A stretch of 64,000 nucleotides of DNA from Nanobdellota archaeon. GTDB lineage: Archaea; Aenigmatarchaeota; Aenigmatarchaeia; Aenigmatarchaeales; SZUA-1535. Made by a program: the position numbers and the translations under genes. Under the pieces are notes generated by a model. It saw nothing but the letters and a program-made list of their open reading frames with translations. It made no database searches and was not told the DNA's origin. The DNA is taken from assembly GCA_015661515.1 (NCBI GenBank), contig DQVX01000016.1, positions 7 through 64,006 on the forward strand. The letters run 5' to 3'. Below, in pieces: positions 31,944 through 63,974 of this stretch. Position 1 is the first letter of the stretch; the number at the start of each line of letters is the position of its first letter.

Positions 31944-33848
31944 TTATCCAAACCACCAATACCCTGCCCAGGGCCATGGCATTTGAAATGCTATATCTGC
32001 TGTTCTCGCTGTTGAGCTTCGGACACAAAAATTAAATGCAGAATTTTCTTGGAAAGACATAAATTTACCTTCTTGGAGCGAAACCCATATACATTGTCTG
32101 CAGCAATCCACTTCATTTTTACATTCTCCAGTCTCATCATACCATTTTGAACAAATATTATCGCATATTTTTGTTGGATCTTCGCAATCTCCTATCCAAA
32201 ACTGAGCATAAGCAAAACAAGGAGAAGCTAAGTAAAAATTATGCATTCCCGTTTCTTTAAAACCGCGATAAAAAAACTCTAATTTTCTATTCGCATTCAT
32301 TACTTTTATTCCGCATATTTTTGAGTTCTTCAAAGCATCCATGAGCTCTTTTTTCTTATAAGTTTTAGGAGCCATACCTGGACCTTTTATGCATATAGCA
32401 TTCCTACATTTTTCAGCTTCTCCTTTCACAGTTTCATATTTTGCTTCAAGTGTGTGAGCAATAAAAATAGGTGCGAATGTTACAGAAACTCCGTATAAAC
32501 AATTTTTGACTGTTCTTTCTTTCAACTCTTCATTTTCTAAAATTTCTTTTACTTTTCCAAGAGGTTTAGCTTCAATTTTTCCTGTATTTGGGTTATAATC
32601 TATTTCATATACTATCCAGTCTTTCATGTTTTTTGATGTGATATCCATTAAATCAACTTCTTGAATACTGTATCCTGTTGGAGATGAGGGGTCTTTCTTA
32701 AGTAAAAGCGTTTTTATTTTTGTTCTTCCGTTTTCTGTAACTTTTTTTAGTAAAAGAGACCATGCAGCGGTTTGGGTAATTTCTTTAGCAATTTCAGTTC
32801 CATCATTAAAGTAATAATATTGAGCATCTTCATCGGTTATATATCCAGCATTTTTCAAAGTTTCTATAATTACTTCAGGAGAAGCTATTCCCAAAGCAGC
32901 ACCGCTAAAAGAGCATATCCATGCTTGGTTATTCTCAATAAGAATTTTTAGTTTTTGGAAAAATATTGGTGCTCTTTTTTTAAGTTCTGTCGAAGCTTTT
33001 TTAATATTAGTTTTCGAAGGAAGAATAAAAGCCAAATTCTTAACATTAAAGTACTTTTTTGCTTTTTCTGTATAGTCTTTTAAACTTTGTTTGAATTTGT
33101 CAATCCTTTTAGCAGCTTCTTTATCCCCACCTTTTTCTAATCCTTTCGCAATCTCATCTAAGGCAGAAAGCATATCGTCTCCAGTTTCAGCTCTAATCAC
33201 ATATAATTTACCATCCTTTACCATAGGTTCTTTAACTTTTTTCCCACCAATTTTAATTGAGCCTCCAGTAAAATGTATTACTGCTTTTCCAAGTTTTGTT
33301 GTACCCCTTCCAAGTAGTTTAGCTGCTTCTGTTGCAAGTTTTATTCCAGTTCCGTATTTGAATATAAGCTTTCCAGCTATTTTCCCACCTTTTATTATAC
33401 CTTTACTGATTGGCCCACCAAGAAATATAAGTGCAACATCTAAGTAAAACCACCCGCTCCACGCATCACTTTCGACGTTTTCATATCTATCCCAGTAAAT
33501 TATATATTTAGGGTCTCCTAAAGCAGGGAGAGCTTCTTTTGAAATCATATTAAGTTCTTGTGGAAGAATAATCGGAACTCCACATGGCTTTTTTTCTAAA
33601 TAAGGAACTTCACATATTACAACATCTCCGTTACTCTTTCCTCCATATCTGTACGAATAATTATATTCTTCATAATTTTTTGCCACTTCAATAAAAGCGT
33701 CAACTAATCTTTTCTGTGTATTTAAAGCTTCCATTTTCATAAGAAAATCTTTTCCAAAAAGCAAATATGCAAGACCAAAAACAACTAAAGCAAAAACTAT
33801 TATTCTAACTAAAAATTCTAAATTAAGAGATAGAGCTTTTCTTATCAT
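31944..33848 (-). CDS. large signal-anchored extracellular protein with Cys-rich, aromatic C-terminus
   Basis: N-terminal TM 'IVFALVVFGLAYLLF'. The C-terminal 100 aa carry about 14 Cys ('DCEDPTKICDNICSKWYDETGECKNEVDCCRQC') and end 'WPWAGYWWFG'. Confidence 0.5.
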   Translation of the reverse strand: MIRKALSLNLEFLVRIIVFALVVFGLAYLLFGKDFLMKMEALNTQKRLVDAFIEVAKNYEEYNYSYRYGGKSNGDVVICEVPYLEKKPCGVPIILPQELNMISKEALPALGDPKYIIYWDRYENVESDAWSGWFYLDVALIFLGGPISKGIIKGGKIAGKLIFKYGTGIKLATEAAKLLGRGTTKLGKAVIHFTGGSIKIGGKKVKEPMVKDGKLYVIRAETGDDMLSALDEIAKGLEKGGDKEAAKRIDKFKQSLKDYTEKAKKYFNVKNLAFILPSKTNIKKASTELKKRAPIFFQKLKILIENNQAWICSFSGAALGIASPEVIIETLKNAGYITDEDAQYYYFNDGTEIAKEITQTAAWSLLLKKVTENGRTKIKTLLLKKDPSSPTGYSIQEVDLMDITSKNMKDWIVYEIDYNPNTGKIEAKPLGKVKEILENEELKERTVKNCLYGVSVTFAPIFIAHTLEAKYETVKGEAEKCRNAICIKGPGMAPKTYKKKELMDALKNSKICGIKVMNANRKLEFFYRGFKETGMHNFYLASPCFAYAQFWIGDCEDPTKICDNICSKWYDETGECKNEVDCCRQCIWVSLQEGKFMSFQENSAFNFCVRSSTARTADIAFQMPWPWAGYWWFG

Positions 33849-36228: not shown

Positions 36229-36927
36229 TTATATCCTATGGCTTAAAGCAGATTCTTCATGAGGAAAAACAACAATACCTTTTTCTGTTATTTTATAAGG
36301 GTGTATTCTTTGAGAATGGTTTGTATAACGCATTTTCCATATTGTAAGGGCTCTTGCAAAATATGTATTAACCCGCATATAATAATAAACTATTACTCCA
36401 TCTGCTAAAAATTCTTCTACTCCGAATCTTGAAAGCTCTGATTGATTTGGAAGTATTTCTGAAGTTAAAATTGTTGTGCATCCAAGCTTGTAAATATTTG
36501 ATACAAGAAGATATATACTTCTTCTAACTTCTGTAGGATCACGAATATACATTCCTAATGCAGAAATAGAATCTATTACAAGCCTTTTTGCATTTATTTT
36601 TCTTACAGAACTTACAATTATATCTATTACTTCTTCAACATGAAACGGATCATAACGAAGCATAATAATTTTTCCTTGTTTTTCGGCTGTTTCAAAATCC
36701 CAACCAAATTGTTTAGCATTACTTTTTACTTGTTCTACAGGCTCTTCAAAAGTTATATATACACCATTTTCTCCATGTTGTACTCCATACCACAAAAACT
36801 GTAAAGAGCTTAATGTTTTACCAGTTCCACATGTTCCACTAAGAAGAATTACAGATCCTTTTGGGAAACCACCTTCAATTAATTCATCTAACCCTGGTAT
36901 ACCCGAGGACACACGCTCCATGCTCAC
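36229..36927 (-). CDS. flaH: KaiC/RecA-like ATPase, FlaH(ArlH)-like
   Basis: 232 aa; 'LLSGTCGTGKTLSSLQFLWYG' Walker A in the KaiC-type context; lies directly downstream of the FlaI-like ATPase. Confidence 0.6.
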   Translation of the reverse strand: MSMERVSSGIPGLDELIEGGFPKGSVILLSGTCGTGKTLSSLQFLWYGVQHGENGVYITFEEPVEQVKSNAKQFGWDFETAEKQGKIIMLRYDPFHVEEVIDIIVSSVRKINAKRLVIDSISALGMYIRDPTEVRRSIYLLVSNIYKLGCTTILTSEILPNQSELSRFGVEEFLADGVIVYYYMRVNTYFARALTIWKMRYTNHSQRIHPYKITEKGIVVFPHEESALSHRI

Positions 36928-36945
36928 ACCTTATAATTTTGAGTT

Positions 36946-38559
36946 TTAAATTTTTATACCAGCCTTTTTTATAACATCTTCAGGATTTTTATAATACTCT
37001 GAAATTATTTTAGAAACTTCATCATATTTTTTAATACCCTTTCTACTCATCCAAAGAAGAATTTGTTTTCTTATTTCCATTTCTTTTTCAAGCTCTGAAG
37101 GAGTTAAACCTATTTGTCTTGAAATCTTATGTAAAATCCATAAATATGCATTTTTTTCAAATTCATCAGAAGCAGGAAGCCAAGAAAAAGCTCTATTTAT
37201 TCTTGCAGCCCCTGTTTTAGGATCAACACTTTGTAGCTCATCAATTTCTTTAACTCTTCTTGCCGCTTTTCCTTTTTCTGCAGCATGAACCATGAAAATT
37301 AAAAGATCTAAAGTTTCTATAAGAGTTGGAGATAATTCTATTGGCGGAGTTTCTAAACGATAAATTACGTCTTCAACTTTACCAGCATGCATAGTACCAA
37401 AACAACTATGTCCAGAAGCCATGCCTTGAAACATTACATATGCTTCTTTTCCTCTAATTTCTCCGACTATAACATAATCTGGATTTTGTCTAAAACTTGC
37501 TTTAAGTAAATCAAACATCGTAACTTCTCCATATTTTCCACCTTCTTTTGTTAATATCCCAAAACCTGTTCTTGTAACTGCAGGAATCCAATTTTCATGA
37601 GGTAAATAAAGTTCTCTTGTATCTTCTATACTAACTATTTTTGCTTCAGGAGGAATAAAAAGAGAGAGAGCATTTAAAAGTGTTGTTTTTCCGGTAGCAA
37701 CACCACCGCATATAAGAAGAGAGCATTTATGTTCTATAGCTAACCATAAATAGGCAAGCATTTCTGCTGAAAGTGTATTTAGCTCCATTAGCTCTACAGG
37801 AGAAAATGGGTTTTTTCTAAATTTTCTTATTGAAAAAGTAGGTCCTCGAGTTGTTACATCTTCTGCTAATGTAGCTTGAACTCTTGAACCATCTGGGAGA
37901 GTTCCATCGAGTAAAGGCTCTGCATAAGATATATATCTTCCACATCTTTCAGCAAGCTTTATTACAAAATCTTTAAGTCTTTCTTTATCTCTGAAAATTA
38001 TATTTGTTCTCATAGATCCAAAACGTTTATGAACAACATAAATAGGAATATTAACTCCGTCACAACCTATGTCTTCTATATAAGGATCATGGAAAAGCGG
38101 TTCTATTTCATTTAATCCTACAAAATCTCTGAAAATATAATAAAGTATTTTCAAATATGTTTGTTTTTTAAGTTTTAAATTAAGTTCTTTAATTACCTTT
38201 TTTACAAGATTTTCAATATAATGCGCTACTTCTCCACTACCTTTTATTTTAGAAAGACCTACATCAATTATTTCTAGCATTGCATTTTGAATTTTTTCTA
38301 AAAGCTTTTTTTCCTCTTCACTAAGCTTTGGTTCAACCACATTATAAACAAGAGTTTTAAGATTATCATCCCATTTTATTCTTGCATACGCATATGGAGG
38401 CAATAAAGGATATCTTATATCTACTTCTTTTAAGTTTTTATAGGTGGGAAGAAAAATAAATTTGGGTTTAAAAATTTCGAATTCGGGGTACTCTTCTTTT
38501 TCAATCCCTTTAAGAGCTAAATAAAGTGCTCCTCTAAGCTTTTTTATTGATTCTAACAT
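36946..38559 (-). CDS. flaI: type IV filament (archaellum/pilus) assembly ATPase, FlaI(ArlI)/TadA-like
   Basis: 'LICGGVATGKTTLLNALSLFIPPEAKIVSIEDTRELYL' Walker A and Asp box, plus 'GEIRG' Walker B and His box. The start is taken at the internal Met (MLESIKKL) 5 nt after the rps26e stop; the ORF track extends it to 38640. Confidence 0.7.
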   Translation of the reverse strand: MLESIKKLRGALYLALKGIEKEEYPEFEIFKPKFIFLPTYKNLKEVDIRYPLLPPYAYARIKWDDNLKTLVYNVVEPKLSEEEKKLLEKIQNAMLEIIDVGLSKIKGSGEVAHYIENLVKKVIKELNLKLKKQTYLKILYYIFRDFVGLNEIEPLFHDPYIEDIGCDGVNIPIYVVHKRFGSMRTNIIFRDKERLKDFVIKLAERCGRYISYAEPLLDGTLPDGSRVQATLAEDVTTRGPTFSIRKFRKNPFSPVELMELNTLSAEMLAYLWLAIEHKCSLLICGGVATGKTTLLNALSLFIPPEAKIVSIEDTRELYLPHENWIPAVTRTGFGILTKEGGKYGEVTMFDLLKASFRQNPDYVIVGEIRGKEAYVMFQGMASGHSCFGTMHAGKVEDVIYRLETPPIELSPTLIETLDLLIFMVHAAEKGKAARRVKEIDELQSVDPKTGAARINRAFSWLPASDEFEKNAYLWILHKISRQIGLTPSELEKEMEIRKQILLWMSRKGIKKYDEVSKIISEYYKNPEDVIKKAGIKI

Positions 38560-38564
38560 AAGCT

Positions 38565-38849
38565 TTACCTTTCTAGATGCTTTTTCCTTACCGTTTTTCC
38601 TTTTTGAACAATACCATGGAACCTTGCACAAGATGGACAAACATATATTTTTTGCTTGAATAAGTGTACCATTCTTTTATCAACAGATTGAAGGATTAAA
38701 GGATCTGTTATTCTAAATCCTCTATATGTCACTATGGTTTTATATCTCGGGACTTTTTTTCCACAAAAACCACAAAGTACAGTGCTTTCTCTACCTCTTC
38801 TTTTTGTATGTTCATATTTTCTTGTATAAGGAGCTACACTTATAGGCAT
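38565..38849 (-). CDS. rps26e: 30S ribosomal protein S26e (eS26)
   Basis: 'TKRRGRESTVLCGFCGKKVPRYKTIV...VCPSCARFHGIV' matches the eS26 pattern (RC-x2-C-x-R-x-VPKDKAI ... YC-x-SCAIHSK). Confidence 0.6.
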   Translation of the reverse strand: MPISVAPYTRKYEHTKRRGRESTVLCGFCGKKVPRYKTIVTYRGFRITDPLILQSVDKRMVHLFKQKIYVCPSCARFHGIVQKGKTVRKKHLER

Positions 38850-38921
38850 ACTACCACCTCCTTTTAATTATTTAAACAAAGATAAATAAAAAATTTAAAT
38901 ATAACAGCGTGATAGAAAATT

Positions 38922-39239
38922 ATGGAAATTTATTGTGAAAAATTTGTAAAATATTACCTATCAGCAATAAGAGCAATAATAGCAAAACTTCTTTTAGAAA
39001 AATATGATTTAACACAAAATGAAGTAGCCAAAAAAATGAAAACTACACAACCTGCTATTTCCCATTATATCCGCGAAGTTCGAGGAAAAAAAGTAAAAGA
39101 AATAGAAAATAATGAAGTTGTAATTAAAAAAATAAACGAATTTGTAGAAATGCTTTATAATAAAGAGTTAAGCGAAGAAGAGTTCCAAAAATTTTTTTGT
39201 GAAATATGCAAACTAATTTTAGGTGATAAAACTTGCTAA
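38922..39239 (+). CDS. small HTH-domain protein (105 aa)
   Basis: 'LTQNEVAKKMKTTQPAISHYIREV' helix-turn-helix; C-terminal 'CEICKL'. Confidence 0.4.
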   Translation: MEIYCEKFVKYYLSAIRAIIAKLLLEKYDLTQNEVAKKMKTTQPAISHYIREVRGKKVKEIENNEVVIKKINEFVEMLYNKELSEEEFQKFFCEICKLILGDKTC

Positions 39240-55913: not shown

Positions 55914-57209
55914 TTATTCACCTAATTCAAGTTCCGCATCGCTTATAATTATCCAGCCATCTCCATATGTTTCAAACTTTATTTTATTCTCTCCAATTGA
56001 AAGATCATCTTTTGTAAGTTTTATTTCATATTTTTCCCCTTCTTTTATTATACCATGAATAAGTATTCTTTTTTCTTTTCCATCACTTTTCACAACTTTT
56101 AAAGCAATAGATATGACATCTCCATAAATTTTTTGAATAGTAAAGGAAAGAGTAGCATTTTTCTTTAAAAGCATGTTGTATTCATCTTCTGAAATATTAA
56201 AAGTAAAAACAGGGCTTTCTTTTTCTCTATAAAAAAGTACCGCATTAACTTTTTCTATATAAAATGAAGTATTTTTTTCTGTGTAAAATTCGAGAAGATT
56301 TACACCTTTCTTTATTTCTATTTTTTCAGGTTCTAAATCTATCATAGGAGCTTTTTCTCTACCACGATATATTTCTTTTCCATTAAATTTTACTATTAAA
56401 TTTCCTTCTCCTTCTATTTTTTCAACTGTCCATAATAGTCTCAAAAGTCTTAATGTCTTTATTTCATCTCCTATATTGAATGGTAGTTCTTTTTTCTTGA
56501 GATCAAAAAAGTAAAGTGTAACATTGAATGAAAGAATATATGTAGTCGGGGCCCATAATCTCCAACCAGAAGAAGTTGCAAAAATCATTATTTCATTTCT
56601 TTCTTTAAGTTTTGAAACATTAAGATCTATTACAACTTTTCCACGTCTTGTAAGATTTTCATAAATAAGTTCATTGTTCAAAAATACTAATAAATTTCCA
56701 TAAAGATTTGTATCATGTACTTCAATTTCTATCTTTGCTTTTTCTACCATTTCAGGCCAGAATATATAAAATGTATTCTCATAAGCCTTTCTACCTCCAA
56801 AACCATTTTTTACTGTTATATTGCTTTCTGAAAGAGCAATTTTTTCATCTGCAGTAAAGCTAATAATAACATTTTCAGCAATTGTTATGTGTTTTATTTT
56901 TTCATTTATTCCAACTTCAAATATTTTTATTACACTTTTATTTTCTGTTTCTGGAGGAGAAGGATAAGAAATATAAGTTACTTGATTTTCTTGAGGAGAA
57001 ATAAAAAATCCTTCTTGAAAAGTAATTACAAAAAGTCCTGCAAGAAGTAATATAGCTACTGCCATTACTCTCTCAAAATCTGACATAAAGATATTAAGTT
57101 TTCTAAATAATAAAAAGTTTGTGAAAATGTGGTATAACGTAAAGGAAAAGGCTGTGAAGCTTAGAATAGAGGCTCCAGAAGAAATATTTTTTATAAAGCA
57201 TTTTATCAC
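55914..57209 (-). CDS. signal-anchored extracytoplasmic protein (start probably the internal Met at 'MSDFERVMAVAILL')
   Basis: TM 'AVAILLLAGLFVITF' followed by a ~390-aa beta-rich domain. Confidence 0.45.
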   Translation of the reverse strand: MIKCFIKNISSGASILSFTAFSFTLYHIFTNFLLFRKLNIFMSDFERVMAVAILLLAGLFVITFQEGFFISPQENQVTYISYPSPPETENKSVIKIFEVGINEKIKHITIAENVIISFTADEKIALSESNITVKNGFGGRKAYENTFYIFWPEMVEKAKIEIEVHDTNLYGNLLVFLNNELIYENLTRRGKVVIDLNVSKLKERNEIMIFATSSGWRLWAPTTYILSFNVTLYFFDLKKKELPFNIGDEIKTLRLLRLLWTVEKIEGEGNLIVKFNGKEIYRGREKAPMIDLEPEKIEIKKGVNLLEFYTEKNTSFYIEKVNAVLFYREKESPVFTFNISEDEYNMLLKKNATLSFTIQKIYGDVISIALKVVKSDGKEKRILIHGIIKEGEKYEIKLTKDDLSIGENKIKFETYGDGWIIISDAELELGE

Positions 57210-58116
57210 CCCACATAGCTATGTTACTGCAGAAACTATAAGATCAAAAGAAATTATAAGAGATGGTAGAAAAATTAAAGTAGGAAAAGAAAAAATAAAG
57301 CTAACTATTGAAGTTGAAAAAATAGAAATAAAGGAAAATGGACTTAAAATTCTTGGAAAAATTGTTGAAAGTTCAAAAGAAACAAAAGGTTATCATTCTT
57401 TAGTTCTTTCTGTTGGTTCAGAAGCAATAATAAAAAAAGACTGGAAAAATTGGGAAATAGAAAAGCTTAGAAAATTAATTAGGCCTTGTGAAAAAGTGCT
57501 TGTTTGCGTAATGGATGAAAAAGAAGCTGAAATATTTATTATAGGAGATGTTATAGAAGAAAAAGGAAAAATTTATTCTGGTTTTTTCAAAGCTCATGAT
57601 TCTTCGCTTAAAACAAGATTTTTTTCCGAAATTTCGAAAGCCATAAAAGACTGGGAGGGGAAAATAATATTAGCTGGACCAGGTTTTGCAAAAGAAGAAT
57701 TTTTCAAATATCTAAAAGAAAATTTATCAGAAATAAAATCAAGAAAAGTTTTTGTGGATTCTATTTCGCATACAGGAATGGCTGGGGTAAATGAGCTTTT
57801 AAAAAGAGGTACTTTAAAAAGAATTTTAAAGGAAACAAGAATTTCTGAAGAAGCAAAAGAAATAGAAAAGTTTTTTGAAGAAATAGCAAAAGAGGGATTA
57901 GCAGTTTATGGAGCCCAAGAAGTTAAAAAAGCTATAGAGTTAGGTGCTTTAGAAAAACTTTTGATAAGCACAAAGTTGATAGAAAAGTATAAAGAGCTTT
58001 TAGATCAAGCAGAGAAAATAGGAGCAAAAATCATGCTAATAAGCGATTCTCATCCTGAAGGAGAAAGATTTTATCATTTCTGCGGAATAGGAGGGTTTTT
58101 GAGGTTTAGAATGTGA
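57121..58116 (+). CDS. pelA: Pelota/Dom34 (mRNA surveillance, eRF1-like, no GGQ)
   Basis: 331 aa; eRF1 domain 2/3 architecture; C-terminal 'FCGIGGFLRFRM' resembles the 'GGIGAILRY' terminus of Pelota; no GGQ motif. Confidence 0.7.
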   Translation: MKMWYNVKEKAVKLRIEAPEEIFFIKHFITPHSYVTAETIRSKEIIRDGRKIKVGKEKIKLTIEVEKIEIKENGLKILGKIVESSKETKGYHSLVLSVGSEAIIKKDWKNWEIEKLRKLIRPCEKVLVCVMDEKEAEIFIIGDVIEEKGKIYSGFFKAHDSSLKTRFFSEISKAIKDWEGKIILAGPGFAKEEFFKYLKENLSEIKSRKVFVDSISHTGMAGVNELLKRGTLKRILKETRISEEAKEIEKFFEEIAKEGLAVYGAQEVKKAIELGALEKLLISTKLIEKYKELLDQAEKIGAKIMLISDSHPEGERFYHFCGIGGFLRFRM

Positions 58117-63182: not shown

Positions 63183-63974
63183 TTACTCATCACAGCTTCT
63201 TTGAGAGACTATTATTCCTAATGGATTAATTAAAACTGCTGTATCTCCCTTATTGTTCCAAGTAATTCCTGTTACACTACTATCAAATTTTATACTTTCT
63301 CCTGGTTTCAATATGATATCTTCAAATTCATAAGACTTTGTATTAGTACCTTCCATATCCTTTAGTACATATCCTCTAAGGTTAACAGGTACAATGCCTG
63401 TGTTTGTTATTTCTACATATTCTTTTTCTTTACTTCCACTACAATTAAGATATGTAATTTCAACTTTTCTAACACCTGTGATTTCTTCTGTGGAAATTTT
63501 AAGCAATTCTACTTCTTGATAAAGTATTTGTTCACTTTCTCTTAGTATTTCAATTAAAGCATTCTTAGGCAAATATCCAGAAATTTGAGTTGAATTTTTC
63601 CCGTCTTGAGAAATAAATGTTATACTTCCATAAGGTGTTTTCAAATAACTTTCTATTCTGAAAGGAGTTGTATTTATCTTAAGATATTTTTCAGGTTCCC
63701 AAAGCTCATAAACTTTTTCTGAAGAAGAATACATAACCTTAACTTTTCTTCCTATTCTAAAAACTTCTCCTTCAAATTTTTCTGGAGAAATAGAAAATGT
63801 AAATTTACCATAAGGAGTTAAATATGTATAAACAACTTTTTCTCCAAGATGTTCTTTTTTAATTGAATAATAATCGCTATAATTATTTTCTACAAAACTT
63901 GAATTCAAAGAAAAAGCTAAACCTGAAATATCTCTATTATCTAAAGTTATATTTCCTGAAATTAAAGGAATCAT
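63183..63974 (-). CDS. secreted protein with C-terminal lamin-tail (LTD) domain
   Basis: 'YVEITNTGIVPVNLRGYVLKDMEGTNTKSYEFEDIILKPGESIKF' matches the LTD consensus (yVEl.N.g...vdLsGw.L.d.....y.fp...l.pG). The N-terminus may extend past the window edge. Confidence 0.5.
   Translation of the reverse strand: MIPLISGNITLDNRDISGLAFSLNSSFVENNYSDYYSIKKEHLGEKVVYTYLTPYGKFTFSISPEKFEGEVFRIGRKVKVMYSSSEKVYELWEPEKYLKINTTPFRIESYLKTPYGSITFISQDGKNSTQISGYLPKNALIEILRESEQILYQEVELLKISTEEITGVRKVEITYLNCSGSKEKEYVEITNTGIVPVNLRGYVLKDMEGTNTKSYEFEDIILKPGESIKFDSSVTGITWNNKGDTAVLINPLGIIVSQRSCDE

Follow-up and report, generated by a model that had tools for sequence, protein, structure and literature searches.

Among the secretion ATPases of archaeal type IV pilus (T4P) systems, AfGspE has been placed in clade 2 (arCOG01817; Figure S4 of the census), which is set apart from the archaellum clade 3 (Makarova, Koonin and Albers, 2016), and the same census listed KaiC-like ATPases (arCOG01171, arCOG01174 and arCOG01175) as putative regulators whose genes share predicted operons with T4P systems of clade 2 and subclade 4B (PMC4858521). 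In the archaellum, ArlH is a KaiC-like regulator of ArlI (PMC8978795; bioRxiv 10.1101/2021.03.19.436134) that binds ATP without hydrolyzing it (PMC8978795). For the pili of DPANN archaea, the general proposal is a role in attaching to hosts or surfaces (PMC8407114; PMC6393860), and a published survey records such genes loosely as "FlaI/FlaJ" (PMC8407114). Here we analyzed a stretch of 64,000 nucleotides from contig DQVX01000016.1 of a Nanobdellota archaeon placed in Aenigmatarchaeota (hereafter the window), with attention to three minus-strand genes for a ribosomal protein, a secretion ATPase and a KaiC-like protein. An earlier note on this DNA took the latter two for an orphan FlaI-FlaH pair in inverted order. 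As described below, we instead consider it probable (about 0.72) that the three genes form one operon encoding the cytoplasmic motor half of a T4P system typical of Aenigmatarchaeota. The genes are as follows:

38849..38565, minus strand: eS26 (S26e) gene, 94 amino acids, first cistron of the predicted operon, stop codon TAA at 38567-38565
38559..36946, minus strand: T4P assembly ATPase (PilB/AfGspE-like, archaeal clade 2), 537 amino acids, assigned by Pfam, PDB and neighbor-joining (NJ) comparisons
36921..36229, minus strand: single-domain KaiC-family ATPase, 230 amino acids, assigned by Pfam, NCBIfam and PDB comparisons as not a FlaH/ArlH ortholog

Organization of the three-gene cluster

The genes are arranged head to tail in the order eS26, ATPase, KaiC-like. 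As the earlier note had stated, the ATPase gene opens (ATG at 38559) 5 nt (AGCTT) after the TAA of the eS26 gene, which ends at 38565, and the KaiC-family gene lies 3' of the ATPase gene on the same strand. The ATG of the KaiC-family gene (36921) is separated from the ATPase stop codon by 24 nt. A Shine-Dalgarno (SD) sequence, GGAGGTG (38861-38855), was found 5 nt 5' of the eS26 ATG, an SD-like AAAGGT precedes the ATPase start, and AAGGTG lies 5 nt 5' of the ATG of the KaiC-like gene. A single operon is predicted from this spacing. The GC content of the window is low (approximately 30%), the ATPase is identical to the public gene call P0001, and the strong matches given below identify the ATPase and KaiC-like open reading frames (ORFs) as real family members rather than chance ORFs.

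Identity of the secretion ATPase

The ATPase matched Pfam T2SSE (PF00437) with 115.6 bits (E=2.7e-33) and, at its C-terminus, PilB3_C with 27.8 bits (cutoff 27). Walker A (GVATGKTT), Walker B (DYVIVGEIRG) and His box (GHSCFGTMHAG) motifs were all present in the translation, and the T2SSE core with these three elements, on which membership of the clade-2 T4P ATPases depends, was thus found complete. The top NCBIfam match was the FlaI equivalog NF058587, the 410.8 bits being below its cutoff of 550. Among solved structures, the best match was AfGspE (2OAP, 416 bits; residues 48-531, approximately 41% identity), against 293 bits for Sulfolobus FlaI and 156 bits for bacterial CpaF. The phylogeny that the earlier note had proposed, of FlaI against pilus ATPases, was run as an NJ tree with three outside references only (AfGspE, one FlaI and, as outgroup, CpaF; sequences taken from printed alignments), in which the ATPase family of the window joined AfGspE in 187 of 200 bootstraps and SaFlaI in 0 of 200. 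These sequence comparisons identify the protein as a hexameric secretion ATPase of the PilB/AfGspE type (clade 2), which is intact and is not FlaI; the previous designation "FlaI/TadA-like" thus holds for the superfamily and fails for FlaI proper.

These results bear directly on the proposal that the ATPase and its KaiC-like neighbor are FlaI and FlaH left from a degraded or rearranged archaellum operon. This proposal could draw on the FlaI model being the top NCBIfam match, on the annotation of relatives as "flagellar protein FlaI" at JGI, on the listing of FlaG/FlaI/FlaJ in Aenigmarchaeota metagenome-assembled genomes (MAGs) (PMC8407114), and on the KaiC-like nature of FlaH itself. Against it stand the subthreshold FlaI score, the preference for AfGspE among solved structures, and the 0 of 200 bootstraps in support of a grouping with the one FlaI reference, together with the properties of the KaiC-like protein and of the orthologous loci described in the following sections. 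An archaellum identity failed every membership test run (score, tree and gene context), and we regard the proposal as already largely refuted and leave it next to no likelihood.

The KaiC-like protein

The third gene product matched Pfam KaiC (PF06745) with 240 bits (E=2.9e-71; cutoff 26.6). In the PDB, it scored 247 bits against KaiC, 177 and 170 bits against the single-domain Pyrococcus proteins PH0186 and PH0284, respectively, and 33.6 bits against FlaH (4yds), while the ArlH/FlaH models NF052589 and NF006320 gave only 42.2 and 24.9 bits against a cutoff of 215. In an alignment of 48 family members, the Walker A motif GTCGTGKT (the GTGKT core and the preceding glycine) and the D/S of Walker B (RLVIDS) were at least 95% conserved, and the catalytic EE pair (ITFEE) was at least 80% conserved. 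The KaiC of the circadian clock consists of two tandem KaiC domains, amounts to approximately 500 amino acids, and works with KaiB (and KaiA). The window protein, with its single domain and 230 amino acids, is not a circadian KaiC proper, as was also evident from its circ_KaiC scores (148 versus 546 and 180 versus 408). Its motifs thus mark it as a catalytically complete KaiC-type ATPase and its scores as not a FlaH ortholog, in disagreement with the description as a "FlaH homolog". The claim of an inverted gene order likewise falls, because the KaiC-like gene is not flaH and because both orders occur in the family: ATPase followed by KaiC, TadC1 and TadC2 is a standard arrangement in the lineage, and KaiC followed by the ATPase is also seen.

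Related loci in Aenigmatarchaeota

Related loci were collected by ATPase similarity at one genome per GTDB species, which yielded 80 loci whose ATPases share 54-80% identity with that of the window; their ORFs were called, clustered and labeled with hidden Markov models (HMMs). Nearly all of the retrieved relatives were labeled Aenigmatarchaeota. In the dominant layout, eS26 is followed by the ATPase, in some cases by KaiC, and then by TadC1 and TadC2, with convergent pilin genes adjoining. Variant layouts comprised KaiC and ATPase in series converging on eS26 and TadC1, eS26, TadC1 and ATPase in series facing an oppositely oriented KaiC gene, and eS26, ATPase, RPA and RadA in series with pilin genes upstream. 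KaiC stood directly beside the ATPase in 31 of the 80 loci; 51 of 81 loci included TadC1/TadC2, and 45 included pilins.

TadC1 and TadC2 are single-T2SSF-domain proteins of approximately 290 amino acids that align to the N- and C-terminal halves, respectively, of the ArlJ/UpsF (FlaJ/UpsF) models, and together therefore constitute a split platform protein; examples are found in loci L076 (6654-7532), L081 (13009-13857), L147 (3706-5392) and many others. The pilins of the relatives matched Pilin_N and the archaellin/pilin N-terminal domain. Those spot-checked (one per pilin cluster and two from L147) were short and PilA-like and matched pilin-type N-terminal models only, with no match to an archaellin model among them. 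Moreover, no archaellum-specific gene (archaellin, FlaF, FlaG or FlaCDE) was found among the conserved neighbor clusters scanned. The PilA-like pilins and the split platform of the orthologous loci thus add to the evidence against an archaellum remnant, and the window itself encodes no archaellin, FlaF, FlaG, FlaH or FlaJ with the ATPase. By sequence, the genes of the window module have their orthologs among the motor genes of complete pilus clusters. In broad outline, the earlier view of a type IV filament system in a small-genome archaeon was correct.

In the ATPase tree, the window and loci L005, L006 and L007 formed a group sister to L008, nested within the clade having the layout eS26, ATPase, KaiC, TadC1, TadC2. 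Loci L005-L007 carry eS26, ATPase and KaiC and no platform gene on contigs of 9-12 kb. From this nesting within a clade of complete layouts, the simplest history would be that platform and pilin genes became secondarily separated from the motor genes in the window clade's ancestor. The epithet "orphan" therefore applies locally, within the 64 kb, and does not apply overall, in that the orthologs reside in complete pilus clusters and the adjacency was lost secondarily.

Split encoding of motor and platform is recurrent in the phylum. Among metagenome loci selected by TadC1, 40 were informative; 33 had an ATPase nearby, and the other 7 consisted of a (KaiC)-TadC1-TadC2(-pilin) module and lacked an ATPase for at least 5 kb on either side. 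Conversely, ATPase-only loci with pilins upstream occur (L004 type). One of the platform-only loci, the low-GC L147, contains KaiC, TadC1, TadC2 and six pilin-like ORFs. Directly upstream of this module, L147 encodes a PINA-like PIN/KH-domain ATPase (1004-2839; PRK13764, 820 bits), and a secretion ATPase is absent from the locus. An attempt to tie L147 to the lineage of the window by tetranucleotide frequencies was rejected as non-discriminating, since the frequencies followed GC content (r=0.964, versus 0.95-0.97 for unrelated low-GC loci).

Absence of platform, pilin and peptidase genes from the window

HMMs of TadC1, TadC2 and two pilin families, built from the relatives, gave nothing significant against all ORFs of the window. 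The only match with E<0.01 was that of a pilin HMM to the ORF at 63183..63974 (minus strand; E=8.5e-4), which was rejected as it encodes a Lamin-tail-domain (LTD) protein. Proteins of this type are repeatedly encoded close to pilus loci in relatives (cluster 20), and that of the window lies at the window edge. When the multi-pass membrane proteins of the window were compared with Pfam and NCBIfam, an MFS transporter, an RseP-like protease and a PAP2 protein were among those recognized, and neither a T2SSF domain nor a prepilin peptidase was found. The observation in the earlier note that flaJ and archaellin genes are missing nearby was thus borne out over the full 64 kb by the HMMs of relatives, Pfam and NCBIfam.

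In a scan of all window ORFs, a class-III-signal-like N-terminus was found in one only (31944..33848, minus strand, 634 amino acids), whose product begins with MIRKA and continues LSLNLEFLVRIIVFALVVFGLAYLLF. This species-specific ORF shares the strand of the KaiC gene and follows it at a distance of 2.4 kb; it has no Pfam, NCBIfam or PADLOC match, and shows a cysteine-rich C-terminus and a charged residue pattern atypical of pilins. Its product could be an adhesin resembling pilins or just a surface protein anchored in the membrane.

The absence of these genes invites the alternative that the window clade lost TadC and the pilins altogether, and that the ATPase-KaiC pair has a non-filament role (for instance, secretion, DNA handling or signaling) or is decaying. 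In agreement with such a loss, neither platform nor pilin gene was found on the contigs of the three closest species (L005-L007) or in L086, or in the window itself, the TadC scan returned nothing from the metagenome of this organism, and DPANN genomes are reductive. On the other hand, the ATPase and the KaiC-like protein are intact with all catalytic motifs kept, and the ATPases of the closest relatives are 75-91% identical, which indicates purifying selection. The contigs of those relatives are short (9-12 kb, as above), and split arrangements, both the ATPase-only loci with pilins upstream and the 7 of 40 platform-only loci, are common in the phylum. Furthermore, no secretion ATPase of the type II secretion system/T4P family is known to function in the absence of a platform protein. 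Taken together, we consider an orphaned, repurposed or decaying pair unlikely, and favor the motor half of a T4P system whose platform and pilin genes would be encoded elsewhere in this genome, by likeness to relatives with platform-only loci.

The eS26 protein and its linkage to pilus genes

As a single sequence, the window eS26 scored below threshold in Pfam (PF01283; 19.4 versus 27) and NCBIfam (31 versus 118). However, a profile built from 17 members of its family matched eS26 chains only in the PDB (70 matches, best E=1.9e-10), the alignment spanning positions 10-90 of 94 and one match being an archaeal S26E. The zinc ribbon CxxC...CxxC (C26, C29, C71 and C74) was invariant in the family alignments A1 and A2, and many orthologs carry PF01283. 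The first gene is thus identified, by sequence membership, as that of ribosomal protein eS26. The names that NCBI gives to some of the homologs retrieved from the phylum read "hypothetical protein" and, in one instance, "Cas8a1 family CRISPR/Cas system-associated protein", and ribosomal-protein censuses may overlook the eS26 of Aenigmatarchaeota through such mislabeling. The window protein itself shows a weak Cas_CXXC_CXXC match.

In 54 of the 80 ATPase-selected loci, eS26 immediately precedes the ATPase gene in the same orientation (median gap approximately 4 nt), and in 68 the two genes lie within 4 kb of each other. In 9 further loci, eS26 immediately precedes TadC1 with gaps of 22-38 nt, and in 4 further cases TadC1 follows eS26 at approximately 300-470 nt. 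The TadC1-selected set was in agreement, with eS26 directly upstream of the ATPase in 24 of the 28 loci holding both genes; one case of eS26 between KaiC and TadC1 was also observed in the TadC-selected set. When sampling was started from the eS26 side (four orthologs on long contigs), three were followed by a T2SSE ATPase, and one of these, L086, showed the same eS26-ATPase-KaiC trio with no T2SSF gene. The sole non-pilus context of eS26 seen was that of L087 (5001-7923; GCA_035291225.1), in which the ortholog precedes Rpb4, DUF655 and KsgA with no pilus gene; this context argues for an ordinary ribosomal protein rather than a pilus-specific paralog. To look for the linkage outside the phylum, the eS26 profile was widened with crenarchaeal and eukaryotic sequences; it matched 3775 proteins, of which the best 120 all belonged to the same family.

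The linkage survives several rearrangements, as eS26 occurs before the ATPase, before TadC1 and the ATPase, before TadC1 in convergent orientation to the motor genes, and between ATPase-KaiC and TadC1. This persistence at the head of pilus-machinery genes suggests more than an inherited neighborhood. Interpreted conservatively, it would reflect cotranscription from the promoter of a ribosomal-protein gene. A real functional coupling for which eS26 is selectively retained with the T4P genes, whether by moonlighting of eS26 in the pilus motor or by a deliberate wiring of pilus biogenesis to ribosome production in host-dependent archaea, deserves little credence at present.

Another interpretation holds that the protein is an eS26-like zinc-ribbon protein that is not, or not only, ribosomal and is devoted to the pilus motor as an accessory or regulator. 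Wherever eS26 was seen in the first 80 ATPase-selected loci, it lies before the ATPase or TadC1 in the same orientation, and three or more distinct gene orders are represented; in the TadC-selected loci, eS26 mostly adjoins T4P genes as well, with additional orders and sometimes without being the leading gene; an accessory role in the pilus would account for such persistence through rearrangements, and the scores under the curated S26e thresholds and the name "hypothetical" at NCBI could be read in the same direction. The family profile, however, matches eS26 alone over nearly the full length, the L087 ortholog (64% identical) resides in a transcription/translation cluster without T4P genes, and no second, more canonical S26e was seen in the phylum in a search that was not exhaustive. 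Operons shared by ribosomal and unrelated genes are also common in archaea. We accordingly judge a dedicated pilus accessory very improbable and retain the assignment as ribosomal protein eS26.

No published description of an eS26-pilus linkage was found, and "S26e" and "DPANN" occurred together in no paper found. S26e is unmentioned in the main text and accessible supplements of the 2016 census of archaeal T4P systems by Makarova, Koonin and Albers, and S26 is unmentioned in a paper on the ribosomal gene clusters of Asgard archaea. The noteworthy part of the present finding is one of organization, namely, that in the sampled Aenigmatarchaeota genomes, which the above counts cover, eS26 heads the operons of the pilus machinery and remains with them through cluster rearrangement.

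Proposed mechanism and its weighing

In the proposed mechanism, the ATPase hexamer would dock on the TadC1/TadC2 platform encoded elsewhere, and its ATP hydrolysis would extract processed PilA-like pilins from the membrane into a filament, which probably serves attachment to the host or a surface. The KaiC-like ring may bind the ATPase and tune its activity as a switch through its own ATP hydrolysis or autophosphorylation. A transcript shared with eS26 (intergenic gaps of about -4 to +14 nt) would tie production of the pilus motor to ribosomal-protein expression. If true, such a fixed link between pilus motor and ribosomal protein would bear on how reduced cells regulate a key organelle of symbiosis.

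Several points weigh against this interpretation. The 64 kb of the window contain no platform, pilin or prepilin peptidase gene, and the TadC1-profile scan of metagenome contigs, which yielded 80 loci, gave none from Ga0180415, the metagenome of this organism. The single operon is a prediction from spacing alone, and the binding and modulation of the ATPase by the KaiC-like protein are proposed by analogy with ArlH on ArlI only. The eS26 linkage could be inherited synteny without function; 11 of the 80 ATPase loci have no eS26 nearby, and the L087 ortholog stands apart from pilus genes. Finally, the references of the ATPase tree are thin and its method simple, yet the tree agrees with the model scores and the gene context.

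The machinery itself is of a known kind, an archaeal clade-2 T4P ATPase with a KaiC-like partner, and the finding is in this respect mostly ordinary, with the eS26-led operon and the split platform as organizational variants worth noting. The result corrects the reading as an orphan, inverted archaellum pair and likewise the routine "FlaI" annotation in DPANN MAGs.

Neighboring genes

Two further features adjoin the predicted operon on its 5' side:

38850..38921, no strand assigned: divergent AT-rich intergenic spacer, 72 nt, likely promoter(s) of the eS26 operon and the HTH gene
38922..39239, plus strand: helix-turn-helix (HTH) protein, 105 amino acids, divergent from the eS26 operon, Pfam HTH_3 24 bits

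TATA-like boxes, TTATATTTAAAT (38903-38892) and TTTAAATA (38876-38869), were recognized in the 72-nt spacer, which on this evidence likely holds the promoter(s) of both transcription units. Homologs of the HTH protein occurred in the window clade (L005-L007) and, outside it, only next to pilin clusters in two platform-only loci, L147 (8905-9282, minus strand; 52% identical to the window protein) and L154 (5414-5791, minus strand). In L005-L007 they occupy the same divergent position, the match in L006 lying inside a longer ORF of 241 amino acids. This distribution marks the HTH protein as a candidate for regulating the pilus system.

In the related loci (L004-L084), the eS26-ATPase pair was closely preceded by a gene for an RtcB RNA ligase in 36 and for an Archease in 31 of 80; RtcB/Archease thus form a second recurrent neighbor pair, tied to RNA metabolism. 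Elsewhere in the window, a plus-strand Pelota/aRF1-like ORF (57121-58116) overlaps an opposite-strand ORF of 431 amino acids (55914-57209) without a family match, and probably one start or one ORF is spurious. A reading of the region as a defense system was rejected, as PADLOC matches were at noise level only.

Comparison with known systems

The pair of ArlH and ArlI resembles the window proteins in that a KaiC-like RecA-fold protein is encoded beside a hexameric ATPase of the FlaI superfamily, and it offers a model for a KaiC partner gating a pilus ATPase. Neither window protein is an ortholog of its archaellum counterpart, however, and the KaiC-like protein keeps the catalytic EE pair and Walker B, in contrast to ArlH without ATP hydrolysis. 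The archaellum further differs in its archaellins and FlaF/G/CDE, none of which occurred among the conserved neighbor clusters checked in the related loci.

The bacterial Tad pilus shares with the system described here a secretion ATPase of the same superfamily (TadA/CpaF; CpaF 156 bits) and a platform made of two single-T2SSF-domain proteins (TadB and TadC), similar to TadC1/TadC2 of the relatives. The sequence relation is nevertheless distant, and the Tad operon includes neither a KaiC partner nor a ribosomal gene.

The likeness to the clade-2 T4P systems, such as those of AfGspE and Haloferax PilB3-PilC3, extends to the domain layout of the ATPase including the PilB3_C tail, and to the gene context, as the orthologs of the window ATPase adjoin TadC-type platform genes and PilA-like pilins. 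The census that defined these clades is older than most DPANN genomes. The window differs from the clade-2 systems in having no adjacent platform or pilin genes, and Aenigmatarchaeota differ from them in that the platform is split over two genes and the operon is led by eS26.

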